From positions 2,136-8,944 of the forward strand of contig JBJCIZ010000106.1 in NCBI GenBank assembly GCA_051294375.1: a stretch of DNA of 6,809 nucleotides, read 5' to 3'. The notes below the pieces were generated by a model, which was not told where the DNA came from, did not search any database, and saw only the letters and a program-made list of their open reading frames with translations. The stretch is from Paraspadella gotoi. Its lineage: Eukaryota; Animalia; Chaetognatha. Made by a program: the position numbers and the translations under genes. Of this stretch, positions 2,679-6,809 are shown in pieces; the first letter of the stretch is position 1, and each line of letters opens with the position of its first letter.

Positions 2679-2719
2679 TAGTCAATTAATTAATCACTAA
2701 TTAATTAATCAGTCAATAC

Positions 2720-3150
2720 GTCCATCCGTCCCACCTTAGCATAAAGCCCCAATAACTCGTGATTGGCTGGTTGGATCGGAATGAAATTTTGTGTATGGGT
2801 AGGAACATGTGTGATGAAGCTGGATATAAAGTTTCGACGGAATCGTGCGAGTGGATATGAGTTTAAATGGAAAAAACATAAGTCGCATTTTCTAAAATCT
2901 GTTTACTTATTTTAACCAATAAATACTCTAATTAATCATAATTCAATGGATAGATTGAGTTCAAATTTTGTGTGTGGGTAGGAAAATATGTGTCGAAGCT
3001 TGATATAAAGTTTCGGTTTGAGTGGAAATGAGTTTAAATGGAAAAAATGCTCAAACTTGTTTCACAATAAGTTTAAAATTGAATTATCAAATAAGACGGG
3101 AAAATGTTGCAAAAAAAATGCTGGAAAGCAAGCGCACCAGTTGCAATGAT
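2720..3150 (+). mobile_element. DINE-1/Helentron-associated (HINE-like) non-autonomous repeat, copy 1
   Basis: TCCATCCGTCC microsatellite-like head, then TAACTC...GGATCGGAATGAAATTTTG core, two internal repeat units and a possible 3' CTGG...CCAG stem-loop (3121-3140). A diverged inverted copy lies at 3641-4056. The family is assigned from architecture only and the boundaries are approximate. Confidence 0.55.
2784..3047 (+). repeat. Internal direct repeat, two ~85-93-bp homologous blocks (2784-2876, 2963-3047), period 179 bp
   Basis: AAATTTTGTGTATGGGTAGGAACATGTGTGATGAAGCTGGATATAAAGTTTCG...GAGTGGATATGAGTTTAAATGGAAAAAA versus AAATTTTGTGTGTGGGTAGGAAAATATGTGTCGAAGCTTGATATAAAGTTTCG...GAGTGGAAATGAGTTTAAATGGAAAAAA. 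Confidence 0.93.
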
Positions 3151-3463
3151 GTAAATTATTATCAATTTACTTTATAGGAACATAAATGTAGGGATTTTTC
3201 CAACTAATGAAATGAAGAAATATTAATCACAGTCAGTCAGTTAAGAGTTATAACAATTTGTTTATTTCAATCCGTGTTTTGCAGACTGTTTCATATTGTA
3301 AAAAATGTTAAATTCTGGGCCGTTTCCTACTTTAACATCAATGTTGATGTAAGAAAAGGAAATCAAAATCCATGAGGTCGACACTGGATCTGGCCATATA
3401 TGTCACCATGAAAAACTACCAGTTTTAAATTCCTACCGCAATTGTTTTTAACTAACCCTACAG

Positions 3464-3581
3464 ATTTAATTTTCCAAAGAATCAAAAAGTCGCTTCAGGA
3501 TTTTTTGCTTTTTAATCTACTCTCTTCGGGACAAAGTGATCTAAAATATGAAAAAGTCATTTACTATCATCAACCTTACAG
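3464..3581 (+). CDS. Possible 118-nt internal coding exon of an unidentified host gene
   Basis: TTGTTTTTAACTAACCCTACAG acceptor and CAG|GTGAGA donor, with one open frame (LIFQRIKKSLQDFLLFNLLSSGQSDLKYEKVIYYHQPY). No recognised homology. Confidence 0.25.
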
Positions 3582-3640
3582 GTGAGACATAAGGGTGGAA
3601 ATATTACAACTAATTCTGTTTTGTTGTGTTAGAAATTTAT

Positions 3641-4056
3641 AACAAGTTTGAGCAAACAATGCCGGATCTACCGACGATCATTAGCGGTAGGAAGTTGATC
3701 AGATAATTAATTAAATAATTAATTAATAAAATTCATAATTTTTTAATAATACTAATTTTTTTTATTCGCGTCAAAATCGTTTTCCACTTTATCTCTCCTC
3801 TCAATCACAAAACAACAATCTCGATCACAATATTAATTAATTAATTAATTACAAAATAATTATTAATTAATTACTATTTAATATAAAAACATAAGAAAAG
3901 TGAAATAGATTTTTTGTTTTTTCTACATTAACTCATTTTCACTTGGACGATTCCTTCTAAATCAGATTTCCAGCTCAAACACACACTTTCTCACCCACAT
4001 TCAAAATATCAAGTCAATCAATCAATCAAAGCTAAGGGAGGACGGACGGATGGACA
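3641..4056 (-). mobile_element. Diverged inverted copy of the same HINE-like repeat (copy 2), with non-matching AT-rich sequence at ~3655-3900
   Basis: The reverse complement of 3912-4056 (GTCCATCCGTCCGTCCTCCCTTAGC...ATTTTGAATGTGGGTGAGAAAGTGTGTGTTTGAGCTGGAAAT...GGAATCGTCCAAGTGAAAATGAGTT) aligns to 2720-2880. 3641-3654 is the exact reverse complement of 3048-3061 (TGCTCAAACTTGTT). Confidence 0.65.
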
Positions 4057-4059
4057 GAT

Positions 4060-4098
4060 ATTTTGCATAATTTTTTTGCATAATTTTTTTGCATAATT
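4060..4098. repeat. 13-bp tandem repeat (TTTTTGCATAATT)x~3
   Basis: Read directly; it shares the TTGCATAATT core with the minisatellite at 4531-4843. Confidence 0.9.
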
Positions 4099-4154
4099 AA
4101 TCATAATTTGATATTCTGACATGATCTAAGTGTCTTCCAGACAAGATTTTTGAG

Positions 4155-4230
4155 TGGGACCGACGGACCGACAAAGTGGATTATAGAGCCGAAATCTGCT
4201 ATAAGCAGATCCGGGTTTTGTTTTCGGCAA
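4155..4230 (-). mobile_element. 5' head of a HINE/Helentron-like element (hairpin, then TCTATA, then GTCGGTCC microsatellite)
   Basis: Minus strand reads TTGCCGAAA...ATCTGCTTATAGCAGAT TTCGGC TCTATAATCCACTTTGTCGGTCCGTCGGTCCC. GCCGAAA/TTTCGGC and ATCTGCT/AGCAGAT are inverted repeats placed before a GTCG/GTCC tetranucleotide run. It may be the true 5' end of copy 2. Confidence 0.45.
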
Positions 4231-4314
4231 CGGCGATTTGGACTGATGAAGACTCGATTCATAATTTTTAATTGTGAATAAAATTTCGAATTGTCATTGC
4301 CGAAAACAACAATC
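4214..4314 (+). other. Long imperfect hairpin (inverted repeat)
   Basis: Perfect 13-bp inverted repeat 4218-4230/4297-4309, extendable inward to 4242/4285 with G-U pairs, plus an inner 10-bp stem 4257-4266/4270-4279. Confidence 0.7.
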
Positions 4315-4530
4315 AAGCCTTCGTTATTATAAGAACAGAAACTGTACAAATCAAGAGAATTAATTTTAGACAATTTATTCTCCAGCTCTGTTTGTATTCT
4401 TCGTCTTTGATTATATTTATCTATTCAAATGGACAAGCCAACAAAACGGTAAATCAAATTTATTTCTCTGTTTAGATGAAAGAAAAAGTTAAAGCTAACT
4501 TTAGCTGTGTTCGTTTATATTCGAGGCTTT

Positions 4531-4843
4531 TTTTTTTCAAACTTGCATAATTTTTTCAACTTGCATAATTTTTTAACTTGCATAATTTTTTCAAACTTGC
4601 ATAATTTTTTAATTTTCATAAATTTTTAACTTGCATAATTTTTTCAACTTACATAATTTTTCAACTTGCATAATTTTTTCAACTTGAATAATTTTTTAAC
4701 TTGCATAATTTTTTCAACTTGCATAATTTTTCCAACTTGCATAATTTTTTCAACTTGCTTAATTTTCAACTTGCATAATTTTTTCAACTTGCATATTTTT
4801 TTCAACTTGCATATTTTTTCAACTTGCATATTTTTTGTACTTG
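4531..4843. repeat. Minisatellite, ~17 copies of an ~18-bp unit (consensus AACTTGCATAATTTTTTC)
   Basis: Counted directly; unit length varies 16-19 bp through T-run slippage. It explains the spurious repetitive ORFs 4644-4829 and 4666-4872. Confidence 0.97.
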
Positions 4844-5133
4844 AAGCATTTTTTCGATTTTTAACTATCTAGTTATCAAGTTCCATTAGTGAGGCAGTGA
4901 GGAAGTGATTTGTTTTATTATCGATTCAAATATTTTTTTTTGTTTAAATTTCCAATTAATTATGATTTACTGCATTATATGCAACTTAGATTATAGTTAC
5001 TTTTTTATTATTTTCCTTGATAGTAAGGACTGGCGAGATCACTATACTTTAGATTTTTATTTATAACATTTGGAAAGGAAAAAAAAAAATCGGAATGCAG
5101 GTTGCAGAAATGTTACAGATAATCTGGACTTAC

Positions 5134-5187
5134 TGACATGATAACCATGACTATTTATATCTTGTAAAATGGGGGCAGTAAGGAAAT
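5134..5187 (-). CDS. Possible 54-nt frame-preserving (phase 1-1) exon
   Basis: Minus strand has an ACTGAC branch-like site, a GAATTTTTTAG acceptor, a consensus GTAAGT donor and one open frame (FLTAPILQDINSHGYHV). No recognised homology. Confidence 0.25.
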
Positions 5188-6356
5188 CTAAAAAATTCGA
5201 TCATTAAGTCAGTCAATGAACCCTTTCTAATGGGCTATTACGTTATGTTATCTTAATGTTTTCTTAATTAAAATAGATGATAAATAATAGAATTAAATTC
5301 CTTGCTATATTTAAAAAAAATTATCAATACAATTTAACATAATAATGTCTTGCTTCGTCAAATATGTTACCACCTATATAATTTTTTAAAACTTTATTAT
5401 GATAAACAAGCAGTGTGTCAAGCTTTTTGTTTGCAGTTAAAGATATAAAAAATGACAATTTTTTTTCACAGACAAGAAGGTAGACGTCTAGACTGTTTAT
5501 ATTAAGCTGAAAACATTTTTGTATTTATCATTTTTCATATTTAAAAAGACATTTTGTCAAGCTACAAAATAATTTTTTGCTTGTTTTTTACTTTAACTGA
5601 AAAATATAAGCAATTTTATGGAATAAAAAAAATTTAATAGTAATCAAAATGTAATTCAGTCTTTCCTTTTTCAAATTACAAAAGAAAAAGAAAAAAATTC
5701 ATATGCCTTCATTAAAGTTTTTAAAGCAAAAAAATGTTATACTTTTAACTCTGATTTAAACAAAATCTGTGTAAAGATTTATGGATTTAATTTAATAAAC
5801 TCATTTAGAAAGGTGTCCCATGATTAGGGGTTTAATTTGATACCACACCCACCTTGCTACCTCTTTTCTTTCAAAAGTTATTTAAAAAAATAACTTTTTT
5901 TAAACAACGCAGTACAAATCTTTATTAAATAAAAATTTGGGCAAAGCGGGAGTATCTCCCTTATTTCTATTGATACATTACTTAAATTTCAAAATAAAAC
6001 TTGAAGAAAATTTTTTCGTCATTTAGAGACATCACTTTCAGATGTACCCATTGTATAACAATTGATTTATTTATATCCCCAAAAAAGCCTAATTAAAAAA
6101 GTTGAAATTTTTTTAAATTGTTGAAAAAAAAGTTTGTCCGACCTATGCTCATTGAGAATAATGCTTTTGCATAGAAAATCAAAATATAAAACAAATAAAA
6201 AAATCAGCCTTTAGAAAAATCGAAAGGCAAGAGGCTGATATTTTTAGAATTGCAAAATTGTTTTCCTAACTCGAAATCCATTATTCTCAGGTTTTAAAAT
6301 ATTTTTTTTCAAAATCATTCAATTATGGTGGACTAAAATCCTCCAACCGTTCATCA

Positions 6357-6428
6357 GCGGCCATTGGTGCCAGAAGCAAGTCATTCGCCTCCCAACCCAA
6401 AGGTACGGGGTTCTTGCCCGGTGGTCGT
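6357..6428 (+). pseudogene. tRNA-Gly(CCC)-like degenerate tRNA (SINE head with Pol III A/B box remnants)
   Basis: 72 nt. Acceptor stem GCGGCCA (6357-6363)/TGGTCGT (6422-6428); A-box-like TGGTGCCAGAAG (6365-6376); anticodon loop CT-CCC-AA (6389-6395) in a broken TTCGC/CCCAA stem; T-arm CGGG...CCCG with degenerate B box GGTTCTTGCC (6409-6418). Too degenerate to be a functional tRNA. Confidence 0.75.
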
Positions 6429-6430
6429 CT

Positions 6431-6506
6431 GGCAGTTAAGAGGGACGGGGCGCTTAACCCGCCTGTAACACGGTGTTACAGCCTGATCCGAAGCTCAGGG
6501 ACTGCT
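6431..6506 (+). ncRNA. Twister self-cleaving ribozyme, circularly permuted type P5 (this copy possibly impaired); predicted cleavage U6455^A6456
   Basis: P5 GGCAGUU 6431-37/GACUGCU 6500-06; AA; P2' GAGG 6440-43; conserved G6444-A6445; T1' CGG 6446-48; minimal P1 loop GGCGCU; U^AA 6455-57; P2 CCC 6458-60; T2 GC 6461-62; P3 CUGUAACA 6463-70/UGUUACAG 6474-81; P4 CCUGA 6482-86/UCAGG 6495-99 enclosing L4 U-CCG-AA-GC. Element order and conserved nucleotides match the twister consensus as I recall it. Confidence 0.82.
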
Positions 6507-6809
6507 TATATTGAACTAACTCATAACAATAATTACTGTCTCTTCACAATCAGTTTTTTTTATTAATTTAAAATATTTTTATGATGTTGTTTTTGTTTGA
6601 AAGAATTGAAAAAATAGGAAAAATATAGTAATTATATAAGGTTTTTGAAATTAGACACAAGGGGAGTAAGCAGGGAAAACTTCCTATTCATAAAAAAAAA
6701 TGAAAATGAATTTGTCATATTGTTATTTAGATTAATTTATGAATTACAAGCTAATGATTCATTAAAGTTAAAAAATGATGGGTAAAAAATATTCATCTTG
6801 GTCTCGGTT

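Follow-up and report, generated by a model that had tools for sequence, protein, structure and literature searches.

A short, high-copy element of Paraspadella gotoi, read as a solo LTR, places a P5-permuted twister-like fold behind a tRNA-like segment

Helenus elements (TRIMp3) are miniature LTR elements that carry a tRNA-like segment in the LTR, occur also as solo LTRs and have Gypsy-type primer sites; those of animals make 4-bp duplications and are thought to be mobilised by Gypsy elements, Trp is among the primer types of the wasp families, and Kojima has proposed that Helenus LTRs stem from SINE insertions (Kojima 2024, PMC10886601). The parts of that paper covered here name no ribozyme in any Helenus, and in the portion covered of another paper Helenus and retrozymes are named as separate kinds (PMC13570524). 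In plant LTR retrozymes both LTRs contain a hammerhead, which is predicted in a blocked conformation; their insertion produces 4-bp duplications, solo LTRs occur, and since the terminal repeat is lost on cleavage, copying from circles has been proposed (Cervera, Urbina and de la Pena 2016, PMC4918200). In schistosome hammerhead SINE-like repeats and animal non-LTR retrozymes, a Pol III-type promoter or a tRNA lies beside a self-cleaving motif (PMC6765202, PMC7229834, 10.64898/2026.07.22.740005). Perere-3/RTE LINEs begin at their 5′ end with twister variants whose P1 is weak or missing (Liu et al. 2021, PMC8501958; PMC7761336). The standard twister P2 consists of four pairs, and changes in P2 length may disturb the active site (PMC5408937).

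The window analysed here, a 6,809-nt stretch of P. gotoi DNA, contains near its end an element in which a tRNA-like segment is followed by a twister-type fold. The initial annotation had given its coordinates as 6357-6534; its actual extent is 6324-6546, and its parts are the following.

6320-6323, + strand: left copy of the 4-bp flanking duplication, CAAT (exact match of left and right flank)
6324-6546, + strand: whole element, 223 nt with TA...CA ends, read as a solo LTR (contig depth and loose ends)
6324-6356, + strand: fixed 33-nt leader, putatively U3-like, with a small hairpin at 6326-6345 (family depth in five of five organism-A runs; hairpin in the MFE fold)
6357-6428, + strand: tRNA-like segment with a CCC anticodon loop and a GGTTC box at 6409-6413, likely a Pol III internal promoter (pairings; shuffle-tested descriptor)
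6431-6506, + strand: P5-permuted twister-like fold (pairing inspection, descriptor, family contigs)
6431-37/6500-06, + strand: P5, 7 bp, with P2 at 6442-43/6458-59 and the catalytic G6444-A6445 (pairing)
6446-48/6488-90, + strand: pseudoknot T1, 3 bp, with T2 at 6461-62/6493-94, 2 bp (all Watson-Crick)
6449-6454, + strand: 6-nt self-complementary linker in place of P1 (self-duplex energy)
6455-6457, + strand: U6455-A6456-A6457, with the predicted cut at U6455/A6456 (twister core position)
6463-70/6474-81, + strand: P3, 7 bp plus a closing pair, with P4 at 6482-86/6495-99, 5 bp, and L4, 8 nt (pairing)
6507-6546, + strand: fixed 3′ part, putatively U5-like (gap and loose-end tables)
6547-6550, + strand: right copy of the 4-bp flanking duplication, CAAT (exact match of left and right flank)

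These boundaries were read from contigs of public sequencing runs aligned to the window. Seven of the 13 runs listed were aligned, namely X1, X2, X5, X6 and X9 of organism A together with X10 (organism B) and X11, with X3, X4, X7, X8, X12 and X13 left out; X1 and X2 belong to one study and X5 and X6 to another, and one run may be the source sample of the window. Contig depth goes up at 6322-6332 and down at 6542-6552, and loose contig ends with unrelated flanks cluster before 6322-6324 and behind 6546. The flanks of the family copies are AT-rich and unrelated to one another (flank agreement 0.40-0.48). A short simple-repeat tail, as had been described for this element, was not seen: the 3′ part holds no tandem repeat, being instead fixed family sequence with a sharp end at 6546. 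The family is dispersed and of high copy number in all five organism-A runs, with 6,964 family contigs in X1, 322 in X6, 768 in X9, 1,425 in X5 and 11,490 in X2, and contigs bridge the tRNA-like and twister parts in each of them, which bears out the proposed linkage of a tRNA head and a twister body among copies. Summed contig depth suggests some 10^4 family copies, a depth sum being no true copy number. In run X11 no contig aligned to the element, which is no proof of absence.

The copy in the window is slightly worn, since four positions of its tRNA-like part differ from the majority letter and 11 nt carried by other copies are missing near 6514-6516, while its catalytic core is the majority sequence. 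Most of the minor variants found along the element are transitions of the CpG type, pointing to a CpG-methylating host. Internally deleted or rearranged copies (6357-6523) also occur, several of their joints recurring in X1 and X2, and one X1 contig at single-copy depth joins the end of the element to its start via a 4-nt spacer, as expected if two copies share one target duplication.

At the insertion site itself, the repeat between left and right flank is exact at 4 nt only among lengths of 1-11, and a match of this kind would arise by chance with a probability of about 0.01 from flank composition at this one site. Contigs with the empty-site joint, from 6323 to 6554, are present in X1, X6 and X2, that is, in three of the five organism-A runs, indicating that the insertion at this site is likely polymorphic. 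The empty allele can be interpreted in two ways: a single CAAT is present and the flanks differ slightly, or there was no duplication and the alleles differ by a 3-nt indel. The consensus of the left flank before 6324 ends in G in four of four rows, although only 12% of flank letters are G, as a preference for certain target sites would produce.

The 72-nt stretch at 6357-6428, as the initial annotation had recognised, has the pairings of a tRNA with a CCC loop. The acceptor stem shows seven of seven pairs (two of them G-U), the anticodon stem three of five with a CU-CCC-AA loop, and the T stem 4 bp; box B is an exact GGTTC, and box A matches three of the five letters of TRGCY. A cloverleaf descriptor matched 3 of 100,000 dinucleotide shuffles of the element; this descriptor and that for the twister were both written after the window had been seen. 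At 6372, 6375, 6405 and 6415 the window copy differs from 82-100% of contig depth, and the majority letters are the better ones for the D loop, T arm and B box. ARAGORN made no call on this segment, relaxed thresholds included, Rfam gave no tRNA match on it (window and 6330-6560, E up to 10), and a blastn search of it against phage records returned seven short chance matches only. An ARAGORN call over 6420-6507 at threshold 80 was rejected as spurious, as it lies within shuffle noise (83 of 1,000).

The twister fold begins 2 nt behind the tRNA-like segment. When the element was dinucleotide-shuffled 100,000 times, its descriptor never matched, and it matched 6 of the 3,000 shuffled versions of 2679-6809; the conserved L1 (U-A-A, G-A) and L4 nucleotides are all present in permuted order. 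The claim that 6431-6506 contains every twister element holds for the core, T1, T2, P3, P4 and P5, and fails for P2 and P1: P2 has 3 nt on its 5′ side and forms two Watson-Crick pairs, the third position being a mismatch or a bulge, and P1 has at most one pair within the monomer. A hairpin at 6443-49/6458-63 competes with the fold, and a monomer folded so as to permit the twister is 7.7 kcal/mol less stable than the MFE structure, pseudoknots being outside this energy. No majority change affects the catalytic core across the family, in which minor core variants reach about 7% or less, are unlinked and are mostly of the CpG type. A second register, with G-A-G-G-G at 6440 and U-A-A at 6466, was discarded, since T1, T2 and P2 fail to pair in it.

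The twister covariance-model match that might have been expected from the initial annotation was not obtained. Rfam gave no twister match and no hammerhead match at E up to 10 in the window and in 6330-6560, and a model that we built from 37 phage P5 twisters, without P3, returned only a partial match of 12.6 bits in another register. The consensus of RF02684 has an 8-bp P1 and no P3, from which the Rfam miss may follow. An exact L4/P4 pattern had no matches in viral contigs, an exact twister core had none in prokaryote genomes, and a gapped twister pattern found 10 loci in metagenomes, none of them resembling the element.

Phage P5 twisters served as controls, and RF02684 recovered 16 of 16 control loci, with 18 of 20 matches above gathering. 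At least 23 distinct examples with a full 3-bp P2 were found among the 241 phage loci listed, along with one with two of three pairs, 14 with four of four and two with three of four, and twisters with a 3-bp P2 score above Rfam gathering. T1 in the form CGG/CCG was seen in at least four clean examples, in 3 of the 120 phage loci listed (six rows passed, from five loci). These proportions apply to the matches listed and are no measure of frequency among phage twisters. The occurrence of a short P2 and of this T1 in phage P5 twisters indicates that both are natural variants, in line with the earlier view of T1 as a compensatory CCG/CGG variant. The agreement has limits: among the matches listed, all three pairs are formed in 23 of the 24 phage P2 helices of 3 nt, against two pairs in the element, and the P1 linker measures at least 14 nt in 43 of 43 phage examples, against 6 nt. 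None of 19 phage loci with a linker of 4-8 nt passed the P2 and P4 criteria. Again among the matches listed, the gap to the MFE has a phage median of 3.1 kcal/mol, with 4 of 43 at 7 or more, compared with 7.7 for the element; from this set of 43 the doubtful loci L201, L206, L301 and L354 had been dropped, while L331, a duplicate of L301, and the doubtful L109 were kept. We also noted that phage P5 twisters with a 3-bp P2 are common and that their P2 pairs vary on both sides (L132, L142, L145, L146, L148, L177, L281, L334, L364 and others); on several phage contigs, two or three twisters lie no more than about 1 kb apart.

Compared with the type-P5 twister, as far as it is described in the sources covered (RF02684; PMC5408937), the element thus shares the order of its parts, the catalytic G and A, L4, T1, T2 and P4, and differs in having a 6-nt palindromic linker as P1, a mismatched or bulged third P2 pair, a P3 together with a closed P5, and a score below Rfam detection. 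P1 is dispensable in other twisters (PMC5408937; PMC8501958, in the parts covered). The tRNA-like cloverleaf and the P5-permuted twister core are real folds; the latter is twister-derived, but it fails the P1, P2 and covariance-model criteria of a canonical P5 member. The predicted ribozyme is probably active in some form.

The initial annotation had taken the element for a tRNA-headed SINE, an identity that we do not retain. The leader of 33 fixed nt upstream of the tRNA-like part, the fixed 3′ end without an A or simple-repeat tail, the TA...CA ends, the 4-bp duplication and a putative primer site in one contig are LTR features, and we regard it as likely that the element is an LTR, although no second LTR, interior or purine tract was seen in the contigs and the two-LTR form is putative. 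The primer site comes from an X10 contig labelled as organism B (151 nt, depth 5.4, likeness 90), which lies on the element for 32 nt with two mismatches and runs past 6546. Its primer motif is presumably of the Trp type. Behind 6546, 13 of 14 letters of this single contig equal the start of Helenus-2_SyJa-I and Helenus-2_SyUm-I. No primer site was evident in the pooled loose ends of the organism-A runs.

On LTR-type ends, the 4-bp duplication and the internal tRNA-like promoter the element fits Helenus, the duplication being from one site. In the portion of the Helenus description covered here (TRIMp3, PMC10886601), it has in common with these elements a tRNA-like segment within a short repeat that begins with a leader, the GGTTC box, TA...CA ends (Helenus having TA or TG...CA), the 4-bp duplication, solo LTRs, and, going by one contig, a putative Trp-type primer site as in Helenus-2_SyJa and Helenus-2_SyUm. 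It differs in the twister behind the tRNA part and in the missing T-run, and its interior and second LTR are putative. No sequence likeness to the Helenus families listed in the part covered was found by eye or by short-term search (PMC10886601). Where wasp Helenus LTRs have their T-run terminator, the element has the twister fold, and nowhere in 6324-6546 does the + strand show three T in a row; a run of four T is absent by chance in 12,830 of 20,000 shuffles (64%). Among the wasp Helenus LTRs counted by eye in the portion of the supplement covered (PMC10886601), a TA start occurs in 5 of 41, and four or more T follow the tRNA part in 39 of 41. The two LTRs without such a run are Helenus-2_SyJa-LTR and Helenus-2_SyUm-LTR, both of the Trp type and with the primer site that the X10 contig matches. 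As judged by eye from the same source, each of these LTRs has a type III hammerhead-like fold just 3′ of its tRNA-like part, with both core motifs, three helices and complementary loops. Fish and some bivalve Helenus also have no T-run, and no ribozyme was seen in them in the material covered (PMC10886601).

With plant LTR retrozymes, within the part of their description covered (PMC4918200), the element shares a predicted self-cleaving fold in a non-coding LTR, the 4-bp duplication, solo LTRs, a blocked conformation and a putative Gypsy-type helper, and it differs in having a twister, not a type III hammerhead, an internal tRNA-type promoter, a putative primer site of the Trp, not the Met type, and an animal host, which the length of the duplication and the type of primer also suggest; its circles are predicted. 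In essence, the element would work like an LTR retrozyme, but it is no member of that class by the hammerhead criterion. The twisters of Perere-3/RTE elements, as known from the parts of the papers covered (PMC8501958; PMC7761336), are unpermuted and adjoin the target duplication at the 5′ terminus of a non-LTR element with coding capacity, whereas that of the present element is permuted and internal. According to the portions covered of four papers (PMC6765202, PMC7229834, PMC7761336, 10.64898/2026.07.22.740005), the schistosome repeats and animal non-LTR retrozymes are tandem and hammerhead-based, have no primer site and make longer duplications, in contrast to the single unit and 4 bp seen here. 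We lean towards reading the element as a solo LTR of a Helenus-type non-autonomous mini-retrotransposon whose twister is predicted to cut its RNA as the hammerheads of plant LTR retrozymes do. The earlier proposal of a Pol III-driven, self-cleaving retroelement thus survives as the best reading of what is one high-copy mobile family, without its SINE identity.

A full-length copy would then consist of an LTR, the primer site, a short interior, a purine tract and a second LTR. Pol III would start near the tRNA-like part of the 5′ LTR and, meeting no T-run, would read into the 3′ LTR, and both twisters would cut at the site equivalent to 6455/6456. The RNA so released would be of unit length, with 5′-OH and cyclic-phosphate ends and without a terminal repeat, and a host RtcB-type ligase would close it into a circle. 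A Gypsy-type helper would prime with tRNA-Trp, copy the RNA and integrate it with a 4-bp duplication, and solo LTRs would arise from short copies of the circle or by LTR-LTR recombination. Cleavage at 6455/6456, RtcB ligation and circles, all proposed in the initial annotation, thus remain predictions of this model.

Since there is no monomer P1 and the competing hairpin is more stable, cutting would most likely need two copies paired via the palindromic linker. The self-duplex of 6449-6454 has six pairs (-8.3 kcal/mol), and the swapped twister-compatible dimer reaches -54.3 kcal/mol, compared with -42.6 for a pair of monomers in the twister-compatible fold and -58.0 for a pair in the blocked fold; the best dimer fold overall (-71.5 kcal/mol) is not the twister-compatible one. 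A full-length transcript with two LTRs would supply both twister copies for such pairing. We offer the details of the circle and of the dimer tentatively.

Several other explanations have to be weighed against this reading. The element may be the same LTR element with a twister that is a captured relic or a weak fold without cutting, an ordinary Helenus TRIM that moves via linear RNA with terminal repeats. The short P2, the missing monomer P1, the competing hairpin (7.7 kcal/mol more stable) and the lack of a model match all point this way, as do those Helenus without both T-run and ribozyme, and since a young family keeps passenger sequence unchanged, the invariant core is weak evidence of selection. 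The core nucleotides, both pseudoknots, P3, P4 and P5 are nevertheless intact, the T1 variant is two-sided and natural, and the fact that two wasp families show a hammerhead-like fold in the corresponding position, seen by eye in the part of the supplement covered, points to a recurring need; we consider a relic unlikely. Helentron-associated elements and MITEs are recognised by the absence of a duplication at a TT site or by terminal inverted repeats. A non-autonomous DNA element of either kind, with a captured tRNA-twister cargo, would account for the sharp ends, for the terminal hairpin at 6326-6345 beside a subterminal inverted match (6349-53/6512-16) and for an empty site that can be read without duplication; given that the element has no terminal inverted repeats, that the site is not TT or A/T, that the 4-bp flank repeat is exact and that one contig carries a putative primer site, this origin is quite improbable.

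The element might also be a non-autonomous Penelope-like element, with a Naiad-type terminal repeat containing a twister that lacks P1, which acquired a promoter of the tRNA type and relies on Penelope enzymes for its copying. A Penelope derivation has been proposed for animal non-LTR retrozymes in the part covered of a recent paper (10.64898/2026.07.22.740005), and the head-to-tail joint in X1 would agree with it; that joint, however, is the one end-to-start joint of whole units among the joints listed, both ends of the element are sharp, the primer site is an LTR feature, and the duplication of 4 bp is smaller than those of animal non-LTR retrozymes (PMC7229834, as far as covered). We therefore find this improbable as an account of the element, while the twister itself may well be of Penelope origin, even under the LTR reading. 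Its size, tRNA-like part, high copy number and dispersal would all suit a tRNA-headed SINE built around a twister and copied by a LINE through target-primed reverse transcription, and a SINE ancestor is possible given the SINE origin that Kojima proposed for Helenus LTRs (PMC10886601, in the part covered). As a description of the present element it is highly improbable, in view of the 33 fixed nt upstream, the fixed 3′ end with no simple-repeat tail, the 4-bp duplication and the primer site, and an internal cut would presumably split the template of the LINE.

The rest of the window holds further repeats. A fold-back element at 405-1256 has inverted arms at 436-536/1118-1218 (81%) and 405-427/1234-1256 around degenerate GGGTTA repeats. 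Two related, inverted blocks of AT-rich and GTCC/GGAC repeats lie at 2679-3060 and 3830-4110, with an 86-nt direct repeat at 2751/2930, and we take these blocks to resemble Helitron-associated short repeats. A long hairpin at 4214-4315 matches MIR5512 weakly (27.1 bits, gathering 139) and is more likely a small inverted-repeat element; 4532-4855 is an 18-bp minisatellite of 18.4 copies with 87% matches, similar units lying at 4061-4098; and 1908-2678 is a 771-nt assembly gap (N).

In the mostly non-subscription literature that was searched, we found no description of a twister in an LTR, of a twister-bearing SINE or of a ribozyme in a TRIM transcribed by Pol III; Repbase, Dfam or SINEBase may already list the family with its ribozyme unnoticed. 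To our knowledge, the LTR retrozymes described so far come mainly from plants and use hammerheads, accounts of Pol III LTR elements mention no ribozyme, and hardly any biological role has been assigned to twisters. An element combining the three offers a testable answer to the question of how the ends are formed when Pol III transcribes an LTR element, and it would give a twister a natural job and provide a candidate for a twister gated by dimerisation in nature. That two wasp consensus sequences show a hammerhead-like fold in the corresponding position suggests a recurring design. It is possible, though we would not count on it, that animals have their own Pol III-driven LTR retrozymes, in which the oligo-T terminator gave way to a ribozyme on at least two occasions, to a twister in this element and to a type III hammerhead in Synergus wasps, and in which the twister would cut only when the copies in the 5′ and 3′ LTR pair via the palindromic P1, so that only full-length transcripts would be cut and circularised.
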